Origin: an uncultured Clostridium sp.
Lineage (GTDB): Bacteria; Bacillota; Clostridia; TANB77; CAG-508
Direction of reading: 5' to 3'
NCBI GenBank assembly: GCA_946498265.1
Contig: CAMMNR010000002.1
Coordinates: 1-33,703, forward strand
Length of the DNA stretch: 33,703 nt
Part shown: positions 1-20,022 of the stretch, piece by piece
How the letters are laid out: every line of letters starts with the position of its first letter
Position numbering within the stretch: position 1 is the first letter of the stretch
Position numbers and translations under genes: made by a program
The notes under the pieces: generated by a model
What the model saw: the letters and a program-made list of their open reading frames with translations, nothing else
Told to the model about the DNA's origin: nothing
The model's database searches: none

Positions 1-152
1 TAGCCGAGTAATTATTAAAATTTATATATAATACTTTTGTTTAATTAATGTAAAAGATTTTCAACAAAATTCCCTTTTTGGACGCGTCCCCAAAATGGTA
101 AAGAAGGTCCGTCCCCCTATCCCGAATTTTAGGGATTAAAGGAACGTCCCCT
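1..152 (-). repeat. Partial copy, cut by the window edge, of the composite GC-rich inverted-repeat element also found at 30002-30267. Arm = 70-152. Core-homologous segment = 1-41.
   Basis: 70-152 (ttccctttttggacgcgtccccaaaatggtaaagaaggtccgtccc...ggaacgtcccct) aligns with 30179-30267 with few differences. The reverse complement of 1-41 matches 30121-30152 (aacaaagtattatatataaatttaataattac) apart from two 1-nt homopolymer indels. The arm ends 3 nt from the TAG stop (156-158) of the 1845-aa gene. Confidence 0.8.
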
Positions 153-155
153 CCT

Positions 156-3100
156 CTATTTTAGAACATATTTTTTTATTATTATTACTCCAGATGCCAA
201 TATTCCTAATGAACATATTCCAATTATAAAATATGGTATATAGTAGTAATCTACACCTGTTGGTGGAATCACTGTAAAATGTTCTGCTTCATCATTATCT
301 GGCTCATATGTTGTACTATTTCCTGGTACATAATTTCCAGGTGTTGTTATTATTACAGAACCATATGTTTTTCCAACTTCTATAATTTCTGCAAAGTTTT
401 CATAGTCTATATCACGGTTTGTTGATAAATTTACATATGTTATTATTTCTGTTGTTGCTGATTGTCCTGCTGATATTTCAACTGCTGCTGTTCCGTTTTC
501 TGTAGGAGTTTCTGTTGGAGATTCTTCCGATGTTTGTCCCTCCTGTTTTACTGGATCTGTTATTGGAGTTATTACTACGTTATTTGTATCATTAAGTTGT
601 GTCTGTAATTCTTCTGTTAGATATCCATTTCTTATTAAATCTTCTTTGTCTTGCTTTTCTTGAATTTGACAATTTGAGTTGTTTTCTTCGCTGACTAGTA
701 AATCATTGTCTATATAATCAATTACTTGTTTTGCTGCTAGTTTTGCACTATATTCATCATCTATTCCTGTATCTCCATACCAATAATATTCTCTTGTACA
801 ATAATCACGTTCTGATAAGTTATTAGCTTTAAGTTCATATGTTATTATTGTTTCTACATCTTGTGAAATTTCGTCATTAATCTGTACTAATACCTGTTTT
901 ATATTCTGATCATTTTCTTCTTTTGGTATATATTGGATATATTTAGGTTGTCCTATTATATTTCCATTTTCGTCGATTTCAGCATCAATTAATGTAACAT
1001 CATTTGATAATTTCATTTCAACATGTTTTATTCTCTTTTTAAGTTCTAATATTTGTTTTGGCCTTTCGATTATACCGAAATCAACATAATTTATACTATA
1101 TCCTTGACTTATTGTTCCTTCGTCTGTTGGTCCAGTAATTTGTTCTTCTGTATCTTCTAAAGTTATTTCCATAAGACGTGTATTTGATTGCATTTCTAAA
1201 GTTTTAATTTGTTTACCAGAGTAATCTTCATTTATTGTTTGATTAAATTCTTGTTTTGTTTCATATGTTATATTTGATGTTTCATCATCTATTTTTTCTC
1301 TTATATCCCAATCATCTAGAGCATCTGTATATCTTGTGTCTTCGTCAACTTTATACCAATGTGTATTTGTTTGAACTCTAGTACTGTCATATACTGTTCC
1401 TTTATAATTTTGAACTGTTGTATATATTTTTTCTCCTTCAGGTGTTTCATAAAATGTGTTATTGCCCCATGTATATTTTATAATATAATCTCCTGGTATA
1501 TATCCTGAAATAGAATAATTTCCATTTTCATCTGTTATAGCTTCTTGATCTTGTCTTACATTATTCTGTTCTATTAAAGTTACTTTAACTTCTTGTACTT
1601 CTTCTTCTCCAGGTTCATAAATTCCTGAACCTATTCTTTGATTGTCTTCTAATTTTTCTTCCATCGCATTATCTATAAATACCATTCCTGATACTGTTCT
1701 CTCTTTATGATTATTTTCTATTTTGAATGATGGGGCTCTATCTGTATCATCTTCATATGTTGAGATATTTCCTGGTACTGCATTTCCTGGCTTTGAGTCT
1801 ACATCCACACCTGCTATCATTGTATTTCCATCTGCTTCAAATGTTGAATATGAATTTATTTCTGCTACGTTTTCTAGTAAGTTTTCATTACCTTCTGTTT
1901 CTGCTACTACTTCAATTGCCTGTCTAGTTAATTTAAATTGTACATATATATAAGTTTCTGATTGTGCATCAAGTTTTAGATTAGTTTCAATAGTCGCTTT
2001 ATGATAATTATTATTATAACCTTGAGTATTTACATTAAATGATTCATTTACTGTTCCATCATCATTCATTGCATTTCCAGCTATTACATATTCTAGCTCA
2101 TATCTGCTATCATAATAATCTACTATTGAATTTACTTGTGATGTAAGATTTGTTGATTGATTTTTTAAAGTTATTTTATAAGTTAAATAAGCTTTTAATT
2201 CCCTATCATCTTTATTGTTTTCATAAGTAAACGTATAATCTGATTTATATACAGGTCTTGTATATGTATATGCTAAATATTTCTGCCCAAATTTTACTCC
2301 TAAATCTTCTGCTGCATCTGATAGGTCTTCTGTTTCATCTATATCTCCGAATAAGTCATCTCCTTGTTCTTGTGCATAAGACATTTTAGTTTCGTAATTA
2401 TATGTATGTGCTTTTCCATTTATTTCTAATCTAACCTTTGCTAAATCCTTTACAAGTGCTAAATCTGGTTGATCTTTTATTAGAATACCAAAATTAACAT
2501 TCTGAATTTCATTATATAATGGATTATATCCACTTTTTAAGCTATATATTCCACTTGTTGAAGCTGTTACATTATATTTTCCACTATTATCATAAACATC
2601 TCCATTATATTTTATTATACTCTGGTAATTTGCACTATCATATTCTACATCTGACATATTATCAACAGTACTATATTTTTGGTTTAAACTATTTCTTGAT
2701 TCTTCTATATCTTCTGCCTTTGAGCCTCTATCTTCACCTATATTTGATGCTATAGCTTGATATTTCATACCATTATATTCAAATTCTACGATATATTCAT
2801 CTAAATATTGTGTTTCTATTTTTAAATTATCTCTATCACCCCAGAATTTGTATTCTCCTTCTTGTAGAGTATTTCCTTTACTGTCTTTTCCAGATTCTAT
2901 AGTATCTATAACAGTTCCATTTCTTTTTAATGTTACTTTTACACCATTTACTCCTTCACCATCTGTATACAATCCATCGCCCTGCCATTTTTTTCCTGCT
3001 TGCTCGTCTATAAATACTATACCTTGTATATCTACATATGTCCTTTCATTTTCTACAATTTGTTCTGCACTATCGTTTTTTACTTTTCCTCCTTCTACTT

Positions 3101-5693
3101 CATAACCTGTTCCTATTTCTTTTTCACTAACATCTGTATTACCAATACGAACATTAAAGTATGGGTTTTCGCTTCCTATTTCATATAAAGTATATGTTCC
3201 TGGTTCTGTGATACTAGAATCATCTAATGTTATTCTTATTAATCCATCTTCTTCAGTAACACCAGTTCCTACATACTCTCTTTTTGATCTCTGCCAATAA
3301 TTATAATATTTTTTCCATTCTTCCCATTCTTTATGATCTTTATTATATTGAGCTGTACGATGTCTTCTTTCACTTCTATTTTCTGTTGTGTAATAAATAT
3401 TTCCTTCTTCATCTACATGTGGTACTTGCACTGTATAATGATATGTATAATAGTAATCACTATATTGAGGTTCTTCCTTATATTTAGTATATTCCTTTTC
3501 TTTTGGATTCCAATTTTTTACACCAAATTCCATACCTGGTAATGGGGTATTTCCAGTATCTTTAATTACTTTTATTATTCCATCTCCAGTTGATGGCTGT
3601 TGTTTTCTAACATTTTCAAATATTACTTCCTGTTTTTCTTCCTCTCCTGATAATATAATCACTTTTTGCACACCTGCTGTTGACAATTCATATCCTGGTG
3701 GTGCTTCTGTTTCTTTTATATAATATGTACCTGGTTCTAGTCCACTGACTGTTATGGTACCAGTTGAACTTGTAGTTCCTGAAGCCACTACATCTGTACA
3801 TTCAACATCTGTACATACTATGAATTTCGCATCTGCTAAACCTATAGTTGTACCTGCTGCATATTTCTTAATAATTAGACCTGCTGAATCTGAAACATTA
3901 TATACAACTCTTACATTTGCTTGTTTGTCCCATTGTTTCCAATAACTTTCTTGCAGTGAAGCTGGCATATTTACAATTGTCTGACCTGTTTTTTCTCTCA
4001 TTCTTCGATAAATTCTATTTAGTTTTTGTTTAACACCTGCCTCGTCAGTCATATCAACTACGGCATAACCTTTTTCATCTATTAAATATTGTAATACATA
4101 ACTTAATAGATTATATTTATTCGTAAATTTCTTTGCATCTGATGCACCTGGATTACTAGAATCCATTATGGTATTATAATATCCACTTGCTTTCAAGTCA
4201 TTTACTATTGCTTTAACTTCTGTACTATCAGGTGCATAATCCACCGCTGCGATAACATATGCCAAAGTACTTATATAATCTTTTAACTGCTTATTTCCAG
4301 GAAGATTATCATAATATAAGTCACTTCCTAAATATGTTATACTTTTTATTGCATCCCATGTATAATTATATCCCATTTCTACATTAGGAATTGTACCTTC
4401 AATTCTATAACCTTGTGGTGTTTCTTTTTCTATTACTTTGTATGTACCACCTGCATTTAACCCTGTTATTTCTATAAGTCCATCAGCATCTGTAGTAAAT
4501 ACTGTTGCTTCACTTTCATTTTTTGTAAAAGAAATTTTATTTCCATCTTTCTTAATATATGAACCATCATTTGGAGCTCCCACCTTTTGGAAAATAAATT
4601 TTGCTCCCTCTAGTGGTTGGCTTGTATCTCTATCTAGTTTTTGTACTATTAATGTCTCTGTATCTATTGTAAAACTAAATTTTTGATGATGATATATTGT
4701 TTCTCTATATGGATAATATGCCATCAAAGGTTGTAAAGAATTTAGAGATTTAAAAATAATTAAATCTGCACATCTTGCTTGACTTTTGCTGTTTATATAA
4801 ATTGTAACAGATACTTTTCCTGTTATTCCTGACGATACTCTTAAGTAAAATAATTGATTTGGTTTTAAAGTAGAAACACCTTTTGCATTCCCATTAGCAT
4901 CATACACATTTCCTGATGTACTTTCTCCTCCACTCCATTTTACTTGTATCATTCTTTTATTACTACTATTATCTACTTCCATTCCACTAGGAAATTCAAA
5001 CTTAAATGGTCCAATTAATGTCATTGCAGTACCTTCTGAATCTGTTACTTGTCTCTTTTGTACTGTTTTACTGCCTGTAGAATTTACTATCCATTGTCCT
5101 ATTGAATCTGCATATTCTTCAGCTTCCCTTTGTAAAGTTTCATTAAATGGCTTATAATCTCCATTTTTCCATGGGTCTCTTATAGTTCCTATAAAACTAT
5201 CTACATTAAATATTCTTCCTAAAGTTTTGGTGCTTGTAGTTGGTTTTGCTGTTTTCCAATAATACATCTCTCTCCACATATTCATACAAAATGAATCACT
5301 TGCATTAAATCCATATTGTGTTCTTTTAGGATGTCCATTGTTAGATACAGTATATGCTAAAATTCCATTTTGCTTAGAAGGTAGTCCTTCTGTAATATGT
5401 ATAGTTGAACCGTCACTATTACTCGTATTATTATAATGACCAGTAGCAATATTTCCTTCTATATTTATTTTAGCTTGTATACGGTAGGTTCCTCCACCAT
5501 GAATACTTTGAGCATGGTTTAAACATACAATATTTCTATTTGCTGAAAAATCAGTTAAAGTTAGTGTAGATCCAACCCAGCCATATGCATCTGCACTAGT
5601 TTTATAACCATCTGCAAAAGATTTTGTATTCATTATTAAAATTGTTAATAAAAACATTATTATTGCTATTATTATTTTTTTAATTCTACTCAT
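156..5693 (-). CDS. Giant surface protein B2 (1845 aa): signal peptide, N-terminal Cys-containing thioester-domain-like module, three SpaA/Cna-B-type domains, SdrD-B-like and DUF11-like repeats, C-terminal IPPTG + TM helix + KK tail.
   Basis: Uninterrupted 5.5-kb ORF. SD aaggaggt lies 5 nt upstream of the ATG. N-terminus MSRIKKIIIAIIMFLLTILIMNTKSFA|DG looks like a Sec signal. E-box-like YYIKETEAPPGY (3690-3725) and YKVIEKETPQGY. SdrD-B-like VFIDNAMEEKLEDNQRIGSG...GNYSISGYIPGDYIIKY. Paralogous to 10867-14907. Confidence 0.88.
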   Translation of the reverse strand: MSRIKKIIIAIIMFLLTILIMNTKSFADGYKTSADAYGWVGSTLTLTDFSANRNIVCLNHAQSIHGGGTYRIQAKINIEGNIATGHYNNTSNSDGSTIHITEGLPSKQNGILAYTVSNNGHPKRTQYGFNASDSFCMNMWREMYYWKTAKPTTSTKTLGRIFNVDSFIGTIRDPWKNGDYKPFNETLQREAEEYADSIGQWIVNSTGSKTVQKRQVTDSEGTAMTLIGPFKFEFPSGMEVDNSSNKRMIQVKWSGGESTSGNVYDANGNAKGVSTLKPNQLFYLRVSSGITGKVSVTIYINSKSQARCADLIIFKSLNSLQPLMAYYPYRETIYHHQKFSFTIDTETLIVQKLDRDTSQPLEGAKFIFQKVGAPNDGSYIKKDGNKISFTKNESEATVFTTDADGLIEITGLNAGGTYKVIEKETPQGYRIEGTIPNVEMGYNYTWDAIKSITYLGSDLYYDNLPGNKQLKDYISTLAYVIAAVDYAPDSTEVKAIVNDLKASGYYNTIMDSSNPGASDAKKFTNKYNLLSYVLQYLIDEKGYAVVDMTDEAGVKQKLNRIYRRMREKTGQTIVNMPASLQESYWKQWDKQANVRVVYNVSDSAGLIIKKYAAGTTIGLADAKFIVCTDVECTDVVASGTTSSTGTITVSGLEPGTYYIKETEAPPGYELSTAGVQKVIILSGEEEKQEVIFENVRKQQPSTGDGIIKVIKDTGNTPLPGMEFGVKNWNPKEKEYTKYKEEPQYSDYYYTYHYTVQVPHVDEEGNIYYTTENRSERRHRTAQYNKDHKEWEEWKKYYNYWQRSKREYVGTGVTEEDGLIRITLDDSSITEPGTYTLYEIGSENPYFNVRIGNTDVSEKEIGTGYEVEGGKVKNDSAEQIVENERTYVDIQGIVFIDEQAGKKWQGDGLYTDGEGVNGVKVTLKRNGTVIDTIESGKDSKGNTLQEGEYKFWGDRDNLKIETQYLDEYIVEFEYNGMKYQAIASNIGEDRGSKAEDIEESRNSLNQKYSTVDNMSDVEYDSANYQSIIKYNGDVYDNSGKYNVTASTSGIYSLKSGYNPLYNEIQNVNFGILIKDQPDLALVKDLAKVRLEINGKAHTYNYETKMSYAQEQGDDLFGDIDETEDLSDAAEDLGVKFGQKYLAYTYTRPVYKSDYTFTYENNKDDRELKAYLTYKITLKNQSTNLTSQVNSIVDYYDSRYELEYVIAGNAMNDDGTVNESFNVNTQGYNNNYHKATIETNLKLDAQSETYIYVQFKLTRQAIEVVAETEGNENLLENVAEINSYSTFEADGNTMIAGVDVDSKPGNAVPGNISTYEDDTDRAPSFKIENNHKERTVSGMVFIDNAMEEKLEDNQRIGSGIYEPGEEEVQEVKVTLIEQNNVRQDQEAITDENGNYSISGYIPGDYIIKYTWGNNTFYETPEGEKIYTTVQNYKGTVYDSTRVQTNTHWYKVDEDTRYTDALDDWDIREKIDDETSNITYETKQEFNQTINEDYSGKQIKTLEMQSNTRLMEITLEDTEEQITGPTDEGTISQGYSINYVDFGIIERPKQILELKKRIKHVEMKLSNDVTLIDAEIDENGNIIGQPKYIQYIPKEENDQNIKQVLVQINDEISQDVETIITYELKANNLSERDYCTREYYWYGDTGIDDEYSAKLAAKQVIDYIDNDLLVSEENNSNCQIQEKQDKEDLIRNGYLTEELQTQLNDTNNVVITPITDPVKQEGQTSEESPTETPTENGTAAVEISAGQSATTEIITYVNLSTNRDIDYENFAEIIEVGKTYGSVIITTPGNYVPGNSTTYEPDNDEAEHFTVIPPTGVDYYYIPYFIIGICSLGILASGVIIIKKYVLK
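255..269 (-). other. Candidate sortase-type sorting motif IPPTG of B2, followed by a 25-aa hydrophobic stretch and KKYVLK.
   Basis: Reverse complement of acctgttggtggaat = att cca cca aca ggt (I P P T G). Tripartite layout of motif, TM helix and basic tail at the extreme C-terminus. Confidence 0.5.
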
Positions 5694-5707
5694 TTTTACC
5701 TCCTTCC

Positions 5708-8700
5708 TTATTTATTTTTCAAAACTTTTTTATAAATAAAATATATTCCAACTGCTACTATTAACAATGTCACAATTATTAGTAAAATATATGTGTATAC
5801 AGTACCTGTTCTAATACTTAAAATAACATCTGCCATTGCTTGATTATCATCTGTACCAGCATTTTCTGGTATACCTGTTTCATTATAGCTTTGCTCTATT
5901 TTAGCTGTATTACTAATTAAGCCTGTGCTATCTTCTGTCATATTTTTTGTTAAAACTAATGTTAAAACTTTTTCTTGCCCTGGTTGTATTAATTCATTAG
6001 AAATACTTGCATTTGATACTCTTCCATCTTCTAAATTCCAATTTGTATTTAAACTAGAATCAAAATTCAAACCTACTGGTATATCATCAACTATATTTGT
6101 TGCATATCCTGGTACTTCTCCTGTATTTTTAATAGTTAAATGATATTCGATTGTAACTAATGCATTATTTAATTTTTTAGCTTCAAGTTCTACTTTTGCC
6201 ATTGTTGTATTATTAAATTCATATGCTTGTATTCCTGATTGATATTTTACTGTTATTCTATTTACTGTTTTATGTATTTGTAAATTAAATATTTCTAATT
6301 CAACAAATCCTATATTTATATATCTAGTATCTTCTCCATCTACTATTAGAGTATCTGTTACTCCATATACTTTTTGTACTCCATTTACATTTATTTCCTT
6401 AGATATTACCTTTGAAGTTTTTGTATTTTCTACATTTTCTGCTTTATATGTAGTTAATTTATATTTATTAGTATTATAATCAACAACTACTAAATATCTT
6501 CCATTTTTTATTTCATTAAATTGATAAAATCCTAATTCATCTGTTTTAGTTATTATATTTTGTCCTTGAGAATCTTTTACTAGTTCTCCTGTATTTGCAT
6601 CTAATAACATTACATTTATATCTTTCATAATTTCTTCATTTGTGTCTTTTTCGCCGTCTTCGTCGCTGTCTAACCAAGCTGTACCACTAATTGCATATGT
6701 TCCTGTATCTTCTACAGGGTCACCTATATCGTCATCGTCACCTATTTCAATAGCATATATATGTGTAATTGGTCCTAATGTTTCTTCATAGCCACTTGTT
6801 GATACAGTTGCTTGATTCGTTATTTCTGTATAATTTTCTAAATCAAATCTTTGGACTTCTACTTCTATTTCTATAATCATAGTAGCATTTTGTTCTAATG
6901 AAAAACTTCTATCTATACTATTATTCAAATAAGTTTTCAAACCAGATTCATCAGTTGTTGCTTGTTCTACAACTTCTCCATTCATAGTTATTGACAATAG
7001 ATTTAGTTGCTCAGGAATATTATCTAAAAATTGTACATATGCATCTGCTTGTCCGTTATTTTTTATTTCTACTATATATTTGAATATGTCTCCTGCATAT
7101 ACTTTTTCATTTGTATTAGTAGATGTCATTGTAGATTCCATGTCTACAAGTGCCACTGCTGATTGATACAAATTTGAACGACACCATTCTTGAGTATCTG
7201 ATTTTGCAACTGCTGTAACCTTAAATGCACTATCATCTATATCCACTATTTCAGCTGTTAGTTCCAATACTTTCTTCTCATTTGCTTCTAGAGTTCCTAT
7301 ATTAGTTTCTTGATTTCCATCTAAGTAATCATATTGAATAACTTCTTCTCCATCAAATTTCTTTAATATTAATGTATGTATTTGTGTTCCTTCTGGTAAA
7401 TTTAGTCTTATCGTCACATTTTCCTGTGGCTCTGAAGTCATATTTTCTACAATTACATAATAATTTATATAAGCCCCTTCTATAAACTCAATTTCTCTAT
7501 CTGATACTTGTTTTACACTAAGTCTTAAATCCCCTTTTTCTACTGTATTACTAATAGTATTTGATTTTATTGAACTATCTTCATATATAAACTCGACTGT
7601 ATTACTAATTGTAGAACCTTCTGTATCTTGTTTTACTCTTACTTCATATTCTTTTGTAACTGATTCTCCTATAGCTAAAGTATTAATATCATATGTTAAC
7701 TCTGTATCTGCTTTTTCTTCAAAATATATGTCCCCAGTATACTCGTAACCTATTTCTCCTTCATAAGGAATTACATATACAGTATTTTCAGGAATTTTGA
7801 CTTTTGCTGAAATATTTTGTGCTTCTAAATTTCCTGTATTTTTAAATTCTACAATATATTTTATTGTTTCTCCTTCTTTAACTTTATCTCCGTCTTTTAA
7901 TTCATCTTGTCCTACTAGGGCTGTTATATTTGTTTCTATTTGTGCTTTTGGTTCTGTTTCTAATGCTACTACTGTTGATGTTGTTGTTTTTGGTTCCATA
8001 ACAGTTGGTACTTTATAACTTACTTCATATCCTTCATAAGATATTTGACTTGCATTTAAGGAGTCTGGCATTTGCATATAATATGTTGCTATAACCTGTT
8101 GTTCTTGTTCTAATCCATTCATTTGTATTAAATAATTTTTTACTTCAGTTGGATTTTCTATTTGTTCTTTCCATTCATTCTCAGGATTTGTAACATCTGT
8201 TGTTACTTCTTCTTTTTCACTATAATATATCTTTACTTGGTTTGTATCAACACCATTTAATGCAATACTTCCATTTATTCCTACTGGCAAAGTATTTTCT
8301 AATTCTTGATCTCCTATTTTTGCTTTTCCTAATGTAGGAAATCTTCCTAATACATTTACATTTTTTACAGCTGTTGTTTCATTGTTAATAAGACCTAATT
8401 CTACTTTGGTTTGTGTTCCTACCATCTCGTCTTTTATTATTGCTTTTTCTTCTTTTTCTTTTCCACTAGTTTTTATTTGGTATTCTTCTATATTATTTGT
8501 TGTAACAACATTTTCTAATGTACATATTTGTATATCTGTTGAAACATCTAAACTTCTATTTTCATTAGAAACATGCATTTTAACTGGTAATGTTTGGTTT
8601 CCTGCTTCTACTTTCACAGTAATATCTGCTATTATAGATATTATTGCATTTTGTAAATCTCTTTCTTTATGGTTTGTTTGTTCTCCTTCCATTTGAATTT

Positions 8701-10489
8701 CAATAATTCTTTTATCATTTTCTGTTTTCATTTTGGCTGATTTTATTGTCAATTCTTCTTCATATAATAATTGAATAGATTTAAATTCTATATTTTCTAT
8801 TACATCTGGTAATTCTATTTGAATTACAGGGTTTTTATATAATTTTTGCGATTCTTCATTTGTTTTTATTGTTGCTCTTATTTCAATATTTTCGTTTTTT
8901 TCTAATGTTGTTAAAGAATTTGGCATAACTTCTATATTAGCTTGCTCTGTAGCTTCTTTTAAAGTTATTTGAGTTTGTTTAATTCCTGAAATTCCTTCTA
9001 ATGTTTCTACTAGTTGCGTAGCATTTTTTACTACTTCATTATTTGTTTGTTCTTGTATTTGTTTTGTTTGTTTAATAGATATTTTTCCTTGTTTTTCTAC
9101 TTGAACAAAATATAGTACGATTTCTCCTAAATCTTCTTGATAATTTATAACTATATTTCCTTGTTCATTTGCTTGTGTCTCTTTGTTTATCTCTGTAATA
9201 GTTTCTCCTGATGTTTTTAATATTTTTAATACTCCATTTTCTCCTAAGATATTATCTAGTTCTTGCTTATTTATCTGTGTCTTTATATATTTACTATTTA
9301 CATTAAATTGTTCATTTCCAACCTGATATTTTTCTTGTAATTCTTTTACTTGGTAAGAATTTTGTATTCCTACTTCATTTATATATATATTAGTTATTTT
9401 TTCAAATTGCTTTGTTTCCCCTGTTTCTATTTTTCCTTTATAAATTTCATTCGCAGAATTTTGTGTCTCATATGTAATAAATCCATTTTTTTCTTCTCCT
9501 ACAGCAATCTGAATTTCTTGTTGCAAACTTGATGTATTCTCATCATATAATTTGATTTCATTTTCTATTTGTAGATTTTCTTTTGTAATATCTATTGCTT
9601 CTTGATATTGAATAGTTATTAATAATTTATCTAATTTGTTTTGCCACTTTATTTTTCCTTCTGTTTCATTATTTGGAATTTGAATTACTAAATTTCCTTC
9701 TTGTTTATTAAATTCATAAATTTCACCTGCTATAGGTATATTTACCTCCATTCCTATAACAGTAATTTTTTCTGCTTTTTCATAATTAGGGATTTTTATT
9801 TCTAATTTATTATTTTTTATAGGATAATCATTTTCTTTTAATCCTGTGTTTACCATTACTTGTGCAATTGTTTTATTTGTACTATCTATTGAGTTTACTT
9901 GATTTGTTATGACTTCTCCTGATAAGACAATTTCTTTATTTTTACTAATTAATTTTGCTTGAACTGTTCTTGTTCCTTCTACATCAATGTCTTTTTCTGT
10001 GCTATCTTTATATGTTCCTTTTAAATTTATTTTACTTTCCATGTTTAAAAAAGATAATTCTATATTATCTGATTTATATGTTTTTATATTTAAAGGTATT
10101 TCTATTTTTTCTCCTGCATTTATTTGGTTAAGAAAAATAGTATTACCTTCTATTTTGTTAACTTTATCACTTAATATATCTTCTTTTAACTCAAAATTTT
10201 TGTTTTCAAACTCTAATTTACCATTGATATATCCTTCTTTTTTAACTTCTATCTCTACATACAATGTTTCATCTGTATTTACTGCTATTTCCTTATCTTT
10301 TGCTTTTTGTCCATTTTGATTTTTAAAATATATATCAAATTCTACATTACTACAATTAGTTGTTCCACTTTCTGACAAACTTTCAGAAACAGCTAATACT
10401 ATACTTCTGCCAATTAATGCAAAATCAGATAAAATCATAAATAAGATGATTAATAAAGTAACTGTTACTTTCAAAACTTTTGTTTTCAT
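5708..10489 (-). CDS. Giant surface protein A2 (~1593 aa): signal peptide, long Ig-like/DUF11 ('conserved repeat domain') array, SdrD-B-like domain, C-terminal SIRTG + TM helix + basic tail.
   Basis: ORF runs 5708-10504. Preferred start is ATG at 10489 (MKTKVLKV...), preceded by gggagag. DUF11-like repeats: GETIKYIVEFKNTGNLEAQNISAKVKIPENT, GDIFKYIVEIKNNGQADAYVQFLDNIPEQL, ALVTIEYHLTIKNTGEVPGYATNIVDDIPVGL. SdrD-B-like ISGTAWLDSDEDGEKDTNEE...GFYQFNEIKNGRYLVVVDY. Paralogous to 14930-19804. Confidence 0.88.
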   Translation of the reverse strand: MKTKVLKVTVTLLIILFMILSDFALIGRSIVLAVSESLSESGTTNCSNVEFDIYFKNQNGQKAKDKEIAVNTDETLYVEIEVKKEGYINGKLEFENKNFELKEDILSDKVNKIEGNTIFLNQINAGEKIEIPLNIKTYKSDNIELSFLNMESKINLKGTYKDSTEKDIDVEGTRTVQAKLISKNKEIVLSGEVITNQVNSIDSTNKTIAQVMVNTGLKENDYPIKNNKLEIKIPNYEKAEKITVIGMEVNIPIAGEIYEFNKQEGNLVIQIPNNETEGKIKWQNKLDKLLITIQYQEAIDITKENLQIENEIKLYDENTSSLQQEIQIAVGEEKNGFITYETQNSANEIYKGKIETGETKQFEKITNIYINEVGIQNSYQVKELQEKYQVGNEQFNVNSKYIKTQINKQELDNILGENGVLKILKTSGETITEINKETQANEQGNIVINYQEDLGEIVLYFVQVEKQGKISIKQTKQIQEQTNNEVVKNATQLVETLEGISGIKQTQITLKEATEQANIEVMPNSLTTLEKNENIEIRATIKTNEESQKLYKNPVIQIELPDVIENIEFKSIQLLYEEELTIKSAKMKTENDKRIIEIQMEGEQTNHKERDLQNAIISIIADITVKVEAGNQTLPVKMHVSNENRSLDVSTDIQICTLENVVTTNNIEEYQIKTSGKEKEEKAIIKDEMVGTQTKVELGLINNETTAVKNVNVLGRFPTLGKAKIGDQELENTLPVGINGSIALNGVDTNQVKIYYSEKEEVTTDVTNPENEWKEQIENPTEVKNYLIQMNGLEQEQQVIATYYMQMPDSLNASQISYEGYEVSYKVPTVMEPKTTTSTVVALETEPKAQIETNITALVGQDELKDGDKVKEGETIKYIVEFKNTGNLEAQNISAKVKIPENTVYVIPYEGEIGYEYTGDIYFEEKADTELTYDINTLAIGESVTKEYEVRVKQDTEGSTISNTVEFIYEDSSIKSNTISNTVEKGDLRLSVKQVSDREIEFIEGAYINYYVIVENMTSEPQENVTIRLNLPEGTQIHTLILKKFDGEEVIQYDYLDGNQETNIGTLEANEKKVLELTAEIVDIDDSAFKVTAVAKSDTQEWCRSNLYQSAVALVDMESTMTSTNTNEKVYAGDIFKYIVEIKNNGQADAYVQFLDNIPEQLNLLSITMNGEVVEQATTDESGLKTYLNNSIDRSFSLEQNATMIIEIEVEVQRFDLENYTEITNQATVSTSGYEETLGPITHIYAIEIGDDDDIGDPVEDTGTYAISGTAWLDSDEDGEKDTNEEIMKDINVMLLDANTGELVKDSQGQNIITKTDELGFYQFNEIKNGRYLVVVDYNTNKYKLTTYKAENVENTKTSKVISKEINVNGVQKVYGVTDTLIVDGEDTRYINIGFVELEIFNLQIHKTVNRITVKYQSGIQAYEFNNTTMAKVELEAKKLNNALVTIEYHLTIKNTGEVPGYATNIVDDIPVGLNFDSSLNTNWNLEDGRVSNASISNELIQPGQEKVLTLVLTKNMTEDSTGLISNTAKIEQSYNETGIPENAGTDDNQAMADVILSIRTGTVYTYILLIIVTLLIVAVGIYFIYKKVLKNK
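5804..5818 (-). other. Candidate sorting motif SIRTG of A2, followed by a TM helix and KKVLKNK.
   Basis: Reverse complement of acctgttctaatact = agt att aga aca ggt (S I R T G). The same 15-mer occurs in A1 at 15035-15049. Confidence 0.45.
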
Positions 10490-10727
10490 AGTTTTCTCTC
10501 CCATTTAAACATATTTTATTCTATTTATATAATAGCTTCATTTACTGTTTTAATCAATATATAGAGTTTTCCAGTTTTTAAAATATTACATTAAAAACTT
10601 TGTATTATCTTACGGAAACTTGTAGATTTATCATGATTTTTCTTATTTTACTTTTTGTTTACATTTTAGTAACATTTCCTTTATTTTCAAACTTTACCAT
10701 GTTTTTTTGTTGATATATTTAAGCTTT

Positions 10728-10756
10728 TATATACGGAAAAGTAAAATTGTATACAA
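10728..10756 (-). promoter_or_regulatory. Candidate sigma-A-type promoter for the A2-B2 operon (TTGTAT-17 nt-TATATA on the minus strand).
   Basis: Minus strand reads ttgtat acaattttacttttccg tatata. The -10 lies ~240 nt upstream of the A2 ATG, mirroring the better promoter upstream of A1. AT-rich background makes false positives likely. Confidence 0.3.
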
Positions 10757-10816
10757 TCGTCGGAGCGTAGCGACTTTTATACAATAGGAAATGACGACTT
10801 TCCTATTGTATAACTA

Positions 10817-10853
10817 AAAGAGATACTATATAAAATTTATATAATATCTCTTT
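10817..10853 (-). terminator. Hairpin immediately downstream of B1: 16-bp stem with 1 mismatch and a 5-nt loop. Probable intrinsic terminator of the A1-B1 operon.
   Basis: aaagagatactatata / tatataatatctcttt flank loop aaatt, 14 nt after the B1 stop (10867). The stem is AT-rich and the U-tract is short. Two more hairpins follow at 10777-10813 and 10758-10774. Confidence 0.45.
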
Positions 10854-10866
10854 ATTTTACATTTTG

Positions 10867-13800
10867 TTATTTATTTAAAGTCTTTTTCTTTATTACAATT
10901 ATTCCTACAGCTGTGATAATTAATGCTCCTACAATTACTCCTGTTATAATAATAAAGTTTCTATTTTCACCTGTTGGTGGAGTTACTGTTACTGATTGTG
11001 CCATATCACTATCAAATTCGTCAGTTTCTCCTGGTATATAATTACCTGGTGTTGATGATATAATGTCACTTCCTCCTGTTTTATCTATTTTTACTATTTC
11101 AGTATCATTATTAAAATCAATTTCATCTGTTACTGCTAATACTTTAGAAACTATTAAATTTACACTTGCACTTTGTGTAGGTTGTAGAGCTTGGTCTTTA
11201 AGTTTTTCTGTATATAATATTATACTTTCATTTATAGTTTCACTATTAATTACTTCTGCTCCTAATAATTGTAATTGTTCAGCTTCCTCTGGGGTTTTGA
11301 TTTCCCATCCACTTTCTTGATTTCTAGATTCTTCAAATTCCCAATCTTTATCTAAATAATCAATAATTGCTGTTGGTGTGATTGTTACAACGGGATCTTT
11401 ATTTATTCCGTATTTATAGTATTCTTCACTAATATAATCTAATTCACTAATATTTTTTGCAATAATTTTATATTCTACTTCTAATGTTGAACCTTGCATT
11501 AATTCTTTGTCTATTTGTACTTGTACAAATCCATTTGGTTTCTGTACATTCAGAGCACTTGGTGGTCCAGCTGTAACATATGTAGAAGTTTGTTTAATAA
11601 TGTTTCCTTCATCATCTAATTCAGCTTCTGCAAGTACTTGTCCATTTGCTAATGTCAATTTTAGTCTACTTACTCTTTTAATTAATTCTACTTCTTGTCT
11701 AGGTCTTTCTACAATACCAAAGTCTACATTTCTGATTTCATAGATAAGTTCATCACCAGTTGCGTCAGTTACTGCCATATCAGTATTTTCTACTGTTATT
11801 CCCATTGTTGGTGTTGTTGAGTCCATTGTTGTTATTGTTGGTGTTGTTGAATTTGTTATTACCTTTAATTCATTATCTATTAACTCTCTTTGTGAGTAAT
11901 CATCTATTGCATCTGTATATCTCTTATCTACATTTGATTTATGCCATGCTTTATCTTGTATATTTTTATCATATCTGTCTTTTGCATAAATTGTTCCTTT
12001 ATAATTTTGTACTGTGTATGTTTCGTCTCCCCATGTATATGTTAATGTATAATCACCTGGTATAAATTCTGCTACTAAGAAGTCTCCATTTTCATCTGTA
12101 GTTGCATTATATACCTTTCCTGTTCCTGTATTTTCTGTTAATGTAATTTGTACTCCTGGTATTCCAAGTTCTCCATCCTCATATTCTCCACTTCCTAGTC
12201 TTTCTTCTCCTGTTTTTAGTTCGGCTTCAGTTCCATCTAAGAATACTTTACCTGTTAATCTTCTTGCATCCGCAACTTCTAATCTTAATGCTGGAGCTCT
12301 ATCAGTATCATCTTCAAATGTCTTTGTATCTTCTGGGTTTGCATTTCCTGGGTTAGAATCTACATCTATACCAGCATATTGATTTCCTTCTTTGTCAAAT
12401 ACTGAATATGAATTTATTTCTACAACATTTTCTAATAGATTATCTTTTCCTGCTTCTGTTCCAAGTTCATCTATTATACTTGCAACTGCTTCTCTACTTA
12501 GTTCGAATTGTACATATATATCATTTTGTTTTTGTGCTTCTATATTAGAATTTGTTTCTATTATTATTTTATTATATTTTGAACTACTATATCCTACATC
12601 TTCAGTATAATTTAAATTTCCACTAAGATTTCCATTATTATCTATGCCAGTTCCTGCTCCTACTATAGTATATCTCTTATCATAATAATCTACTATTGAA
12701 TTTACTTGTGATACAAGATTTGTAGATTGATTCTTTAATGTTATTTTATATGTCAATTTTACTTTTAACTCTCTACTTGTATCTTCGTCTGTGTATGTAT
12801 AATCTGATTTATATATCGCTCTTGAATATGTCATATTTGAATATTTTTCTCCAAATTTAACACCTACATTAAATATGCTACTCTCATCATTTTTATCATT
12901 TTGAGCTTCTTTTGATTTTGTTCCATAATTATATGTATGACCATATCCATTTATAGAAAGACTTACATTATCAAGGTCTTTTACCAAAGCTAGGTCTGGT
13001 TGTTCTCTTTCATATAGTCCTAAGTTTATATATTTAATTTCTTCTTGTCCTACTACATAGTGCTCTAAAATACTATAACCTGTTTGTTCTGTATCTGCAA
13101 TAATTGGAAATTGTCCTTGCCCATTTTCTGCAAATTCTAATACTTCAGCATTTTCGTCTTTAAATTTTACATTTATGAATATTGACTTATATTCTTCTTC
13201 ATTTTTGTCATATTCTAAATCATATATTTTATTTCCATTTGAATCTTTTGTTATACCAGTATTTCCGCCTGTACCTTCGACAATACTAAAGTTATTATTA
13301 AATGTTCTTCTTTCATCTTCATTTTCTGCTGCTTTTGAACCATTATCTTTATCTATATATGGTACAACATTTGTAAATGTTAGTCCATCATATTCAAACT
13401 CAATATAGTAATTTCCTAATTCTTCTACTAATACATCTACAAATAAATATGATCCTCTATCTGCTGTAACTGTTTCCATTATTGTATTTCCAGATTTATC
13501 TTTTAATCTTACTGGTATTCCATTAAGTAGTTTGTCTTCATAATCAAATTCTCCATCATTATATAAATCATTTCTTATTGATTGTTTTTCTGATTGCTTA
13601 TCTAACCAAACATATCCTGAAAGTTTTATATATTTTTGAATATTTGATACATTTAAGTTTGAAGTTTTATCAACTACTACTGTTCCTTCTGTTGCTTCTG
13701 TTTTTAGTTCATATCCATAATTAGGATTTTTTGTTTCATATGCTAAATATTTTCCTACTAATAGATTTTTAACTGTAAATTCTCCATTTGCATTTGTTAT

Positions 13801-14907
13801 AAATTCTGTTGCTTGACTTCTACTATCTACATATGTAATTACTCCATTTGAATTTTGTTTTACATATTTTCCAGTATCTTTATTTTGTATAATAAAACCT
13901 ACTCCAGAAAGTGTTACATTATCTCCACCTTCTACTATTTTTATTACTTTAAGATGTCCTAATAAAGATATATCATATTCAAAATCTTCATGTATTTTTT
14001 CTGATGATGTATATGGTTCTCTTGCCATTAAATTTTGATAACTTGCTCCACTTATACTTTCTAAGAACCATATTTTTACTGATTTAACATCATAATTACA
14101 GCTTCCTGATATTCTTGTTATTTTACTTACACTTTTGTCTATTGGTATTAATACATAAAAGTTTTTATCTGATTTTATTTGTTTAACACTTACTGTTTTA
14201 AATGTTGAACCTGAATACATTCCATATGCTACTCCACTTATTGCTTTTTCATTTTGATCATATACAGTTATACCACTTAGACTTCCTGGGAATGACCATT
14301 TAAATGGTCCAACTCTTGTATATTGTTTTCCATTTACTTCTACTGCTGTTGCTTTTACTTGACTTTTATTTGTATTATCTTCTAATGTTGAAGTATTAAT
14401 ACTATTTGCATATGATTGCGCTTGTGCTATTAGACTATTTCCTAAAGATGAACCTGCATTTCCTGATACAAATGCTTGTGAAATTCCATGTCTTGTACCA
14501 ACACTTCTTACCCAAGTAGGTGCATATGTCCATATTGCATTTGCCACTGGCCCTTGGTCTTTGTCTATTCCTGCTCCTTCTGTTCCATTATTTTGTGAAA
14601 GTATATATGCAAAAGTTGCATTTATTTTACTATTATTTACTCTAGTATTATTAGCCGTATTTACTGAATTTAATCCTTTAATTGTTACAATTGAATTTAC
14701 TCTATATGTGACATCATACCCAGGTAATCTTTGCCCATGTTGAACACAGAATAAATTTGTATCTGTTATATAATCATAATATGATTTGCTTAATACATCT
14801 CCTACATTGTAACCACTATATGATGCTGCTTCTGTTGTATTTGCTATACATAGTATTGCAATAATTAATCCTAATATTAAAATGATTTTATTTTTTAATG
14901 TTTTCAT
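10867..14907 (-). CDS. Giant surface protein B1 (~1346 aa): signal peptide, Cys-containing thioester-domain-like N-terminal module, SpaA/Cna-B domain, SdrD-B-like and DUF11-like repeats, C-terminal TPPTG + TM helix + KKK tail.
   Basis: ORF runs 10867-14940. Preferred start is ATG at 14907 (MKTLKNKIILILGL...), preceded by aaaggaggt with a 9-nt spacer. Signal peptide ...ANTTEA|AS. Cna-B/SpaA-like LKVIKIVEGGDNVTLSGVGFIIQNKDTGKY...NGEFTVKNLLVGKYLAYETKNPNYGY. SdrD-B-like LSGYVWLDKQ...GIPVRLKDKSGN...DRGSYLF. Confidence 0.88.
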   Translation of the reverse strand: MKTLKNKIILILGLIIAILCIANTTEAASYSGYNVGDVLSKSYYDYITDTNLFCVQHGQRLPGYDVTYRVNSIVTIKGLNSVNTANNTRVNNSKINATFAYILSQNNGTEGAGIDKDQGPVANAIWTYAPTWVRSVGTRHGISQAFVSGNAGSSLGNSLIAQAQSYANSINTSTLEDNTNKSQVKATAVEVNGKQYTRVGPFKWSFPGSLSGITVYDQNEKAISGVAYGMYSGSTFKTVSVKQIKSDKNFYVLIPIDKSVSKITRISGSCNYDVKSVKIWFLESISGASYQNLMAREPYTSSEKIHEDFEYDISLLGHLKVIKIVEGGDNVTLSGVGFIIQNKDTGKYVKQNSNGVITYVDSRSQATEFITNANGEFTVKNLLVGKYLAYETKNPNYGYELKTEATEGTVVVDKTSNLNVSNIQKYIKLSGYVWLDKQSEKQSIRNDLYNDGEFDYEDKLLNGIPVRLKDKSGNTIMETVTADRGSYLFVDVLVEELGNYYIEFEYDGLTFTNVVPYIDKDNGSKAAENEDERRTFNNNFSIVEGTGGNTGITKDSNGNKIYDLEYDKNEEEYKSIFINVKFKDENAEVLEFAENGQGQFPIIADTEQTGYSILEHYVVGQEEIKYINLGLYEREQPDLALVKDLDNVSLSINGYGHTYNYGTKSKEAQNDKNDESSIFNVGVKFGEKYSNMTYSRAIYKSDYTYTDEDTSRELKVKLTYKITLKNQSTNLVSQVNSIVDYYDKRYTIVGAGTGIDNNGNLSGNLNYTEDVGYSSSKYNKIIIETNSNIEAQKQNDIYVQFELSREAVASIIDELGTEAGKDNLLENVVEINSYSVFDKEGNQYAGIDVDSNPGNANPEDTKTFEDDTDRAPALRLEVADARRLTGKVFLDGTEAELKTGEERLGSGEYEDGELGIPGVQITLTENTGTGKVYNATTDENGDFLVAEFIPGDYTLTYTWGDETYTVQNYKGTIYAKDRYDKNIQDKAWHKSNVDKRYTDAIDDYSQRELIDNELKVITNSTTPTITTMDSTTPTMGITVENTDMAVTDATGDELIYEIRNVDFGIVERPRQEVELIKRVSRLKLTLANGQVLAEAELDDEGNIIKQTSTYVTAGPPSALNVQKPNGFVQVQIDKELMQGSTLEVEYKIIAKNISELDYISEEYYKYGINKDPVVTITPTAIIDYLDKDWEFEESRNQESGWEIKTPEEAEQLQLLGAEVINSETINESIILYTEKLKDQALQPTQSASVNLIVSKVLAVTDEIDFNNDTEIVKIDKTGGSDIISSTPGNYIPGETDEFDSDMAQSVTVTPPTGENRNFIIITGVIVGALIITAVGIIVIKKKTLNK
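10969..10983 (-). other. Candidate sorting motif TPPTG of B1, followed by a TM helix and KKKTLNK.
   Basis: Reverse complement of acctgttggtggagt = act cca cca aca ggt (T P P T G). Confidence 0.5.
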
Positions 14908-14929
14908 AAAATTTTTACCTCCTTTCTTC

Positions 14930-17900
14930 CTATATTTCATCGATTTTTATATCATTCTTTTTTCTAACTAATACAATTGCTACTATTACTAAGATTGCAA
15001 CTACTATAATAGTTATTCCTACATATACAATTCCACCTGTTCTAATACTTAAGATAACATCTGCATAGTCCATATCATTTTCACCTTGCACTTTATTTGC
15101 TGGTGTTGAATTTATATCTCCTAATCCTAATTCATTATATGCTTCTGCTATTTCTGCTGTATTATTTACAAGTCCTGTATTATTTTCGTTCATTGCTTTT
15201 GTAAGTGTTAATGTTAATGTTTTTGTTTCTCCTGCTGCTATTTTATCATTTGCTATGCTTGTATTATATAATACTCCATTTTGTTGATACCAATCCTTGT
15301 TTAATTCTGAACTAAATTGAAGACTATTTGGCATATAGTCTGCAATTTTTCTTGCATAACCATCTATTTCTCCTACATTTGTAACATTGATTTTATATTC
15401 TATTATTACTGTTGTTCCTGCTAGTTGTTTTGCATCTATTTCAACTTTTGCTAGTTTTTCATTGTTAAATTCTTTTACTGTTGTTCCTGCTGAATTTTGT
15501 AATATGATTTTACTTACATATTTTTCTAATTTTAAATCAAATGTTTTTAGTTCTATTAAACCTATATTAATATCTGAAATATTATTATTGTCTATTGTTA
15601 TTATATCTGTACCTGTTACTTGTTCAGTATTTCCTGCTATATTCAATTCTGTTAACATTGCATCAGAGTTTTTACTCTCATCTGCACCCTCTACTTTGTA
15701 TTTAGTAACTGTATATTGTGTTGCATTATAATCAAATATCACAACATATTGTCCATTTGATATATTATTTAATACATACATTCCGTTATCATCAGTTGTC
15801 ACCTCTAGTACATTTCCTGATTCGTCTTTTACTAAATTATTAGTTTGTGTATTTAATAATCTTACTTTTACATTATTTAATGTAGATTCATTATTATCTA
15901 CAATACCATTAGTATTTTCATCATACCATGCTAGACCACTTATCATTCTTGTACCATCTGTTATATCTCCATTGTTATTACTATTATTATTATCATCTTC
16001 ATCTTGGTTATTATCTTCATTAGATGTTGTCTCTATTATATGGCTTATACTATCTGTTTCTGCAATTACTTCTCCGAACATGCTTGCTGATGCTTTATTC
16101 ACTATTGTTTCTGCTTCATTTCTTCCATCTGATTCATCTACTACAGTTTCGATTTTTACTTCACATTGACCTTTTTCCATAATACTTAATATAATTTCTA
16201 CATTATTGTCTTCTATTCCTTCTACAGCTTCTCCATCTACAGTTATGTTATTTATTGTTAGTTGTTCTGGTATTGTGTCTGTAAAACTAATTCCTTCTGC
16301 TCTACTATCTGAATTATTTTTAAGTATTATTGTATATTCTATTATGTCTCCTGCTTTAACATATGAACTTTCTGTATTAGATGTCATTGTCATTGATATA
16401 TCATAATTGTTTATATTGTCTTCCCATACATTAGATTTATATTCTTTAGAATTATCTTTAGCTACTACTGAAAATTCTGCTTTTTCATTTTCAGTTTTGC
16501 TTACTAACATACTATAACCTAAGACTTTTGTTTCTCCTGCATTTAAAGTTCCTACATTTACTTCATTTGCATATTGTAAGTCCTCTGCTGTCATATTGTT
16601 TCCTATAGAATCTTCTTTTTGTATTTCATTTTGTTGGCTTACAGGTTGATTATTATCTTCTACATTTATTTCTTCATTTAAAACTTGTTGTGATTCCATT
16701 CCTGTATATAATGTTAAGTTTTCTACTTGCAAATTATCTGATTTATTTGTTTGTATTTTAACATTTTCTTGTGCTTCATTTGATATATTTTCAATTATTG
16801 CATAATACTTAACTGCTCCATTTGCATATATATTTATATTTCTATCAGTAACTTTTTTTACACTTACTCTTAAATTTCCACTTTCTGTTGTGGTTTGTAT
16901 TTCATTAGATTCATTTATTGCTTCTCCATATTTTGTCTCTATCATATTTGTAAGTGTTGTATTTTCAGCTGTATCTGAATTTACTCTTACTTCATATTCT
17001 ACAATTGCTTTTTCTCCAACTGCTATTTTTTCTATAGTTTTTTCGAATTTTTCTGCCTCTATTTCTTTATAATATGATGAACCTGTGTATTCATAATTTG
17101 GCTCTGGTTCTACTAATGTTGTTCCTTGAGGTATTTGACCTGTTACTATAGCATTTTGTACTTCTTCTGAACCAGTATTAGAAATTTCTACATGATATTT
17201 TATAACTTCTCCATTTTTTACTTTCATATCTGAAGTTAAGTTTTGATTTCCAACTGTTGCACTTAACACTGTTTCTATTTTTGGTCCTACACCTGTATCC
17301 ATTTCTATATTTGTTGATTTTATTGTATTTGAAATATTTGTTACAGCATTTGTATAACTTACTTCATAACCTTCTGATGCTTTTTGATTATATTCAAGGT
17401 TTTCTGGTACTTCTATGTTATATGTACCTATAACACTTTGTCCAGATTCCAAATTATCATATTGTATTAAGTATTTTTTACTATTTTGTGTTGCATTTTG
17501 TGTCCATACATTTTCTGCATTTTGTAAGTCTTCTGTTGCATTCTCATTTTCTGAATAATAAATTGTTGCATTTTCCATATTTATTGTAGTTGCAAGTTTT
17601 GCTCCTAAATTATTTGATTCACTATCAGTAGGAAATGTTCCTAATACTTTCATATTACTTATTGGTTCTTGATTGTTATTTATTATCTCTAATTGCACTT
17701 CTAATCTTTTTGCATCTTGTCCTTTATCCATTGATATTGTTTGTTTTTCTTCTTGTCCTACTGTTTCTATTCCTAAGTCTTTTATACTATTTATTGCTGT
17801 TACATCTGTAGGTGCTACTATTTGGATATCTTTTGAAGTTGTTCCTACTTCTTCTCTATTTGTATATTCCATTGTTATTTGTTTTGTTGAAGTTGCTGAT

Positions 17901-19804: not shown

Positions 19805-20022
19805 TTTTATTCCTCCTTTAAAAAACACTTAAAATTAATATTTCCTTTATATAATATAAATTTTTTGTAAAAAAATCAATTATTAATATTAATGTATTTT
19901 TTTATCTTTTTCTAACGTTTTACGGCTTTACACTTTGCGTGTTTGAGTGTTTTATATTACATTTTCATGACATTTTTGTAAAAATTTGTAATATTATTTA
20001 TTTGCATAAAGCACCTATTTAT

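Follow-up and report, generated by a model that had tools for sequence, protein, structure and literature searches.

Proline-less and proline-bearing C-terminal tails of paired giant proteins in an uncultured Clostridium: putative cell-wall sorting signals of one inherited module

Four giant genes, set in the order A1, B1, A2, B2 on the minus strand, occupy positions 156-19828 of a 33,703-nucleotide stretch of DNA from an uncultured Clostridium sp. (assembly GCA_946498265.1, contig CAMMNR010000002.1, here C2); the whole stretch, at its full length, is called the window below. The proteins encoded by the A genes end in a tail carrying SIRTG, those encoded by the B genes in tails carrying TPPTG (B1) or IPPTG (B2), and a preliminary description of the window, made from the sequence alone, regarded both as plausible, non-canonical sortase substrates. 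The analysis reported here suggests that both tail types may well be C-terminal cell-wall sorting signals of a single inherited anchoring module, in which an immunoglobulin (Ig)-like domain is followed by x-x-x-T-G, a membrane helix and a Lys-rich stop-transfer tail. Taken alone, the B tails are in all likelihood sortase substrates, as judged from their sequence. The A motif represents a known kind of signal in a proline-less, hitherto undescribed form, which occurs throughout the lineage. Coordinates of all features are given in Table 1.

Conservation of the A and B tails

Translation of the four open reading frames (ORFs) bore out the layout first described: the tails are tripartite, the motifs lie where they had been placed, and LPXTG is found in none of A1, A2, B1 and B2. 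After each of the four motifs come about 20-25 hydrophobic residues, and then a K/R-rich (Lys-rich) tail. At the other end, the four N-termini appear by eye to be signal peptide-like, with a hydrophobic segment behind an initial K/R-rich one. The decapeptide ADVILSIRTG is common to A1 and A2. The last domains of A and B proteins can be aligned, both in the four proteins and in the wider family, the acidic PGN...E/D-D...A...V segment included, and the motifs are thus positionally homologous, as had been claimed.

The conservation of the A tail was assessed on 139 A-type representatives sharing at most 50% identity, drawn from the best 150 and retained solely for having a C-terminal membrane helix and a basic residue; the motif played no role in the selection. 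The Thr (138/139) and the Gly (139/139) are the most conserved columns of the whole tail. Position 2 is hydrophobic (I in 76, V in 44, L in 10 tails), position 1 is mostly S, G or T, and position 3 is variable (K in 68, R in 30, S in 23). The conservation of the Thr-Gly pair is far above chance, and a fixed Thr-Gly next to a variable position 3 is what a scissile bond preceded by a free "X" is expected to look like. The consensus of the A module reads GE[DN]D..A[DE][VL][IL][IL]-[SGT][IVL][KRS]-TG, and the module closes with a conserved end, KK[Y/K]V[L/I]. The distance from motif to C-terminus has a median of 32 residues and ranges from 27 to 43 in 141 relatives.

Both motifs are kept in orthologues over the genus and four sister genera, thus the proposal is not weakened by lack of conservation. 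A-type C-terminal domains were found in 23 of 24 genus genomes, several in each, always beside a B-type gene; the A tails of the genus follow [S/G/N/T]-[I/V/L]-x-T-G, one relative having NIKTG. Tails of the other genera of the family are alike, with one reading SIKTA-G. Within the class, the module is present in all eight sampled genomes of one family (five genera), and in none of 293 others. A search for related loci among genome contigs retrieved five, all from metagenome-assembled genomes of uncultured Clostridia. A profile of the A1/A2 terminal domain, run against a library of 1.84 billion proteins, collected 3268 representative clusters, 1377 of them with E<1e-30. That as many as 1377 clusters at no more than 50% identity stem from one family-level lineage indicates that adhesins carrying the A module diversify very fast. 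The lineage hosting the module is one family of gut Clostridia, uncultured, AT-rich and with small genomes (1.2-2.4 Mb).

Interchange of proline and non-proline residues at position 2

In the genus survey, the B tails read [T/V/I/L]-P-[P/S/A/N]-T-G and are followed by a polar spacer; VPPTG is among the motifs of relatives. The B motifs are ordinary and fall within the known variation of LPXTG-like signals. The proline is not strictly retained. Among 90 distinct B1-type tails, 82 carry xPxTG and eight have lost the proline (TSKTG, TSATG, TAATG, TSNTG, TAPTG and TTPTG were found), all 90 keeping TG. Conversely, proline is found at position 2 in A-like relatives ending in APKTG, MPKTG and VPSTG. 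In one close pair, P0005 (...PAPIIV-APKTG) and P0068 (...PADFIV-SVKTG), a Pro/non-Pro swap at position 2 can be directly followed.

Since proline is swapped within both families, with Ser, Ala or Thr in B tails and with Ile or Val in A-like ones, the two motifs are equivalent in position, and the two motif types of the window appear to be two states of one signal. The interchange, with TG kept, is the strongest argument for one reader of both B and A tails. The idea that two distinct motifs within a cassette mean two different sortases or fates gained no support. In addition to the interchange of Pro with other residues, Spy0129, a class B sortase of Streptococcus pyogenes M1, accepts both EVPTG, carried by the shaft pilin Spy0128, and VPPTG, carried by the tip adhesin Cpa, the consensus of its signals being (E/Q/V)(V/P)PTG (PMC3019223). 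As Spy0129 alone accepts both, two motifs need not mean two sortases.

Sortases and candidate enzymes

No sortase gene was detected on contig C2 with the Pfam sortase model (PF04203), in agreement with the preliminary description. The genome-wide search which had been called for there gave six matches on other contigs, thus the genome is not devoid of sortases. Two of the six belong to class B (TIGR03064, 155.8 and 148.6 bits). The remaining four have no curated class, the scores of the best class C, D and E models being far under cut-off. One of the six, the copy on contig C143, is broken. Sortases are present in all the 38 family genomes examined (2-12 in each), whereas 11 of 16 genomes of sister families, which lack the module, have none. 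No exosortase (PF09721) was found above cut-off in 31 genus genomes.

Class B enzymes were considered as the cognate, general sortase and discarded. TIGR03064 has no match in 9 of 31 genus genomes, cassette carriers included, and near-complete genomes carrying both A and B genes are among those lacking it (G004, 97% complete; G014, 99%; G019, 95%; G022, 100%), which excludes class B as the general enzyme. Moreover, neither tail type matches (S/P)-P-x-T-G, since position 1 of the B tails is T, V, I or L and the A tails lack Pro. The two class B copies of the genome reside in apparently mobile-element contexts. A class B sortase of G016, located a few kb away from a cassette, directly adjoins a protein that ends in NPQTL, a helix and a basic tail, and is its obvious substrate; the pair (L073 in Table 1) is a classical one for class B.

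A sortase encoded on contig C88 is a different case. Full-length orthologues, 53-95% identical, occur in 21-22 of 24 genus genomes, and the neighbourhood (AlaX-like, HIT, sortase, LigA, named by sequence) was found in full in four of five contexts inspected. Conserved orthologues in a fixed neighbourhood suggest a housekeeping sortase, and make the C88 type the best candidate enzyme for the tails. These proteins have an N-terminal anchor only, and no C-terminal one. The C88 type was also evaluated as a class C pilin polymerase and rejected, the DPF of the own copy not being conserved in 14 orthologues.

Some sortases, found on contigs C47 and C38 of the genome hosting the window and at locus L074 of genome G004, appear by eye to lie in conjugative element-like contexts, in the company of a VirB4-like ATPase, a peptidase and a recombinase, and next to adhesins that bear FCAEHG, a motif of the thioester type. 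Adhesins belonging to the element itself are probably what these sortases act on.

Predicted structures of the tails

The last 200 residues of A2 were modelled with AlphaFold2 on a 20-sequence alignment (mean pLDDT, the predicted local distance difference test score, 86.9). The model is an Ig-like sandwich. Its last strand spans residues 157-167 of the fragment (QAMADVILSIR), S-I-R lies within this strand, Thr168 is the sole linker, and a helix (169-199) starts from Gly169; pLDDT is about 75-81 around the motif. The best fold match in the PDB is the CARDB domain 3idu, and the search for similar folds of the A2 terminal domain in the PDB returned generic Ig-like, CARDB and RhoGDI-type sandwiches only. 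Since S-I-R is part of the fold, the hydrophobic nature of position 2 is explained by the fold, and only T-G is left to be accounted for. The model of B1 is poor (mean pLDDT 68.8). TPPTGEN forms a coil that separates a short strand from the helix, a placement which fits the prolines and the polar spacer of B1. Confidence being low, the model lends weak support to the notion that the B1 motif is exposed.

Comparison with known sorting signals

The tails resemble LPXTG-type signals (TIGR01167, PF00746) in their three parts (a pentapeptide with T-G at its end, a stretch of about 20 hydrophobic residues, a basic tail), in being preceded by an N-terminal signal peptide, in belonging to a genome which encodes sortases and, for the B tails, in retaining the Pro of xPxTG. 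They differ because position 1 is T, V or I in B, and S, G or T in A, rather than Leu, because the A tails have I, V or L where Pro is expected, and because the motif comes directly after a folded Ig-like domain, where a linker spanning the wall is missing.

The pilus of S. pyogenes M1 is similar in that neighbouring genes encode proteins with different motifs, position 2 may be Val or Pro, TG is the cut site, and the partner carrying xPPTG is an adhesin whose N-domain is of the thioester type. The B protein is likewise tip adhesin-like, having a thioester-like N-domain and SpaA domains. In contrast, the S. pyogenes signals have an invariant Pro at position 3, and the operon includes the sortase gene; in the proteins described here, position 3 of A is K, R or S, and no sortase is linked. 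Furthermore, S. pyogenes relies on the class B enzyme Spy0129, whereas class B sortases are missing from many cassette genomes. Pneumococcal pilins carry IPQTG (RrgB) and VPDTG (RrgC) (PMC11231552). Ile or Val at position 1 and Pro at position 2 are thus accepted, as in IPPTG of B2 and in VPPTG and VPSTG of relatives. Pneumococcal pilins depend on islet-encoded class C sortases; neither such an enzyme nor an islet organization was seen here.

The closest proline-less analogue is NVQTG of the Clostridioides difficile adhesin CbpA, which resembles [S/G/N]-[I/V]-x-T-G, both occurring on clostridial adhesins. The preliminary description held that C. difficile SrtB recognises NVQTG. This does not agree with published data, because NVQTG peptides were not cleaved in vitro in either of two laboratories, and both Donahue et al. 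and Chambers et al. doubt that CbpA is anchored by sortase (PMC4155245, PMC4371152). The substrates of SrtB are (S/P)PXTG (PMC4155245, PMC4371152, PMC5569036), from which the B tails depart in beginning with T, V or I, not S or P. The original view that both motifs are plausible sortase substrates holds for the B tails, which are normal xPxTG motifs, and is less secure for the A tails, given the behaviour of NVQTG. In the literature searched SIRTG is not mentioned as a sorting signal, and for non-canonical signals of this kind in Clostridia general reviews were all that the search returned.

Processing and fate of the tails

The notion that A and B tails are sorting signals of one module implies the following steps. 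The precursors would be exported via Sec, in keeping with their N-terminal signal peptides, and then held in the membrane by the helix and the basic tail, so that the Thr-Gly bond would be exposed on the outer side. A sortase bound to the membrane, the gene of which lies elsewhere in the genome, would cut between Thr and Gly and link the carboxyl of Thr to peptidoglycan. This sortase would not be of class B, the best candidate being the conserved C88 sortase in its fixed housekeeping neighbourhood. The B tails would act as ordinary LPXTG-like signals, [T/V/I/L]-P-x-T-G plus a polar spacer, and the A tails, [S/G/T]-[I/V/L]-[K/R/S]-T-G, would be a lineage-specific, proline-less derivative. The A tails are probably read by the same enzyme as the B tails, mainly via T-G and the hydrophobic position 2. 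Expansion of sortases in exactly this lineage, and the lack of any other known tail-processing system, favour the cutting of the tails by sortase. A bolder version of the same idea is that [S/G/T]-[I/V/L]-x-T-G is the true site of a sortase which needs no proline and reads the strand end and the Thr-Gly at the membrane surface; we regard this as conceivable, though rather doubtful.

Several observations weigh against cleavage of the A tails, or against the anchoring scheme as a whole. Sortases are not known to cut motifs that have Ile or Val at position 2 and lack Pro at position 3, and the behaviour of NVQTG towards SrtB, the nearest proline-less precedent, argues against cleavage. The curated anchor models PF00746 and TIGR01167 (Pfam, NCBIfam) do not match the tails. 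No proline-less motif was found on unrelated proteins in the complete genome G270; confined there to one homologous module, the motif could be a feature of the domain rather than a portable signal. The membrane helix of the A tails is partly conserved, with a Tyr about eight residues past TG in 98 of 139 representatives, a Gly in 87 and an Ile in 104, a pattern unexpectedly strong for a stop-transfer segment that is discarded. As S-I-R sits in the last beta-strand and only Thr precedes the helix, the A motif is, according to the model, less exposed than usual sorting signals, and among structural arguments this is the main one for an A tail that stays uncleaved. No sortase adjoins any cassette in the loci inspected. 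A tblastn search with five of the own sortases, the C143 copy being left out, gave no match in loci L008-L072, and longer stretches around cassettes of four relatives contain unrelated sortases only. Finally, G014, which is 99% complete and carries the cassette, has no close orthologue of the C88 type, thus the assignment of the enzyme is not clean.

Much of this would be accommodated if the two partners met different fates, the B proteins being anchored to the wall by sortase and the A proteins retaining the helix as a permanent membrane anchor, with Thr-Gly working as a hinge or helix cap. Such an arrangement is less probable than cleavage of both tails, yet for the A proteins it is a serious rival. 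In line with it, the Gly starts the helix in the model, [I/V/L] at position 2 matches the alternating hydrophobic pattern of the strand which includes S-I-R, part of the helix is conserved, C. difficile SrtB leaves NVQTG uncut, the motif is restricted to one homologous module, and no dedicated sortase was found in the cassette loci inspected. Two invariant residues, though, are more than a hinge usually requires, and in the A tails core positions of the fold vary more (Ala 134/139, Glu 133/136) than the Thr (138/139) and the Gly (139/139). A hinge is also hard to reconcile with the existence of A-like tails with Pro and of B tails without it, since the two states interconvert and TG is kept. 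In addition, the spacing between motif and helix equals that of the canonical LPXTG proteins of the same genome.

Sortase might alternatively build a pilus-like or heteromeric assembly, in which the Thr of B, for instance, is joined to a Lys of its partner A. Only one of them would in the end be linked to the wall, and the two motifs would direct the two steps. A and B genes are indeed always paired genus-wide and probably co-translated, the motif directly follows the last Ig-like domain, as in pilins, B proteins contain SpaA domains, and the tip adhesin and the shaft pilin of S. pyogenes have VPPTG and EVPTG, respectively. This scenario seems unlikely all the same, because no sortase, class C or Spy0129-like enzymes included, is found in or beside any cassette inspected, the core sortase lacks both a conserved DP[FWY] lid motif and a C-terminal anchor, and partners of 1300-1800 aa are far above the size of shaft pilins. 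A YPIKN patch, kept as [Y/L]-P-[I/V]-x, occurs in A1 and A2, and was considered as a pilin motif and dismissed. Its Lys, present in just 52 of 91 aligned A homologues and replaced by E, Q, S or N elsewhere, is not conserved, and is hence an unlikely pilin acceptor.

That the tail is read by a family-specific protease or transpeptidase, neither sortase nor exosortase, is highly improbable: the restriction of the module to one family (8/8 genomes against 0/293 others in the class), its own end KK[Y/K]V[L/I] and the failure of curated anchor models would fit, but no candidate enzyme was found, the cassette flanks are ordinary housekeeping genes, exosortases are absent from the 31 genus genomes, the B tails make good sortase motifs of the xPxTG type, and it is in this very lineage that sortases have expanded.

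Prediction of surface proteomes in Gram-positive bacteria makes use of sortase signals, which are also employed as tags for protein ligation. Because the module escapes PF00746 and TIGR01167, a Clostridia lineage common in the chicken gut has its largest and most variable surface proteins annotated as plain hypothetical or membrane proteins. Should the proline-less tail be cleaved, Pro at position 2 would be dispensable for at least one natural sortase, and the question of C. difficile CbpA would be reopened. If the proline-free site were real, one specificity would anchor thousands of fast-evolving giant adhesins in a family of uncultured gut Clostridia, sortase specificity would be broadened, and a new ligation tag would be on offer. 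If A is not cleaved, a pair in which one partner is linked to the wall and the other to the membrane would represent an unusual surface architecture.

Organization of the locus

The start codon of B1 (14940) is located 11 nt inside the end of A1, the stop codon of which is at 14930-14932, and the overlap suggests that A1 and B1 are translationally coupled. A2 and B2 are separated by 14 nt. The other ORFs of the window resemble genes for cell shape and housekeeping functions: by eye, minC, a PBP2-type transpeptidase, mreD, mreC, mreB, radC and a PcrA-type helicase were recognized. The assembly measures 1.87 Mb in 232 contigs, has 26.5% G+C and is 82% complete. Identical sequence is present in chicken-gut metagenome runs.

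Table 1. Position of the giant genes, of their tails and of other features mentioned in the text. Coordinates refer to the window, unless a contig or locus is indicated.
Feature	Coordinates	Strand	Description
A1 gene	14930..19828	-	1632 aa; DUF11, SdrD_B (Pfam)
B1 gene	10867..14940	-	1357 aa; SpaA, SdrD_B (Pfam)
A2 gene	5708..10504	-	1598 aa; DUF11, SdrD_B (Pfam)
B2 gene	156..5693	-	1845 aa; SpaA x2, SdrD_B (Pfam)
A1 SIRTG	15035..15049	-	residues 1594-1598; 34 aa to C-terminus
A2 SIRTG	5804..5818	-	residues 1563-1567; 31 aa to C-terminus
B1 TPPTG	10969..10983	-	residues 1320-1324; 33 aa to C-terminus
B2 IPPTG	255..269	-	residues 1809-1813; 32 aa to C-terminus
A2 membrane helix and basic tail	5711..5803	-	TVYTYILLIIVTLLIVAVGIYFIYKKVLKNK; translation, AlphaFold helix
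A1 membrane helix and basic tail	14933..15034	-	translation
B1 polar spacer (ENRN), membrane helix and KKK tail	10870..10968	-	translation, AlphaFold model
B2 spacer, membrane helix and KK tail	159..254	-	translation
A2 terminal Ig-like (DUF11/CARDB-like) domain	5810..6283	-	Pfam DUF11, AlphaFold; last strand extends into motif
SIRTG-bearing A-tail peptide			DVILSIRTGTVY
YPIKN patch, A1	19133-19147		
YPIKN patch, A2	9812-9826		
LPxAG protein, own contig C14	674-2542	-	
LPxAG protein, own contig C36	7892-9274	-	
LPxAG protein, G270 contig C3	136429-137878		
LPxAG protein, G270 contig C8	19383-20741		
L073 (G016:C4)	13389-15400		class B sortase (278 aa) directly downstream of 363-aa protein ending NPQTL + helix + KNKKF
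L074 (G004:C1)	1-8000		sortase in conjugative element-like context
Broken family member, G270:C4	71080-75336		example of frameshift or in-frame stop

Other anchor signals and related observations

Canonical signals are present in the genome which hosts the window (LPKTG twice, LPQTG twice, LPFTG once), together with LPNAG and LPAAG, and the giant proteins thus stand out against a canonical background. The canonical LPXTG proteins share the geometry of the A and B tails, with the motif 27-43 aa from the end, a spacer of 0-6 aa, a helix and a K/R tail. The B1 tail scored 13.9 bits against NF053819, below threshold.

Several smaller surface proteins end in LPxAG (LPNAG, LPAAG, LPKAG) followed by a helix and a basic tail, Ala replacing Thr. 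Three LPxAG proteins and one LPxTG protein were counted in G270. LPLAG is found in FctB of S. pyogenes.

Some members of the giant protein family, a fast-evolving multigene family, are frameshifted or interrupted by an in-frame stop (TAA/TAG), as in G270, where the second A gene continues out of frame into B2. Such broken members could be pseudogenes, products of phase variation or assembly errors.

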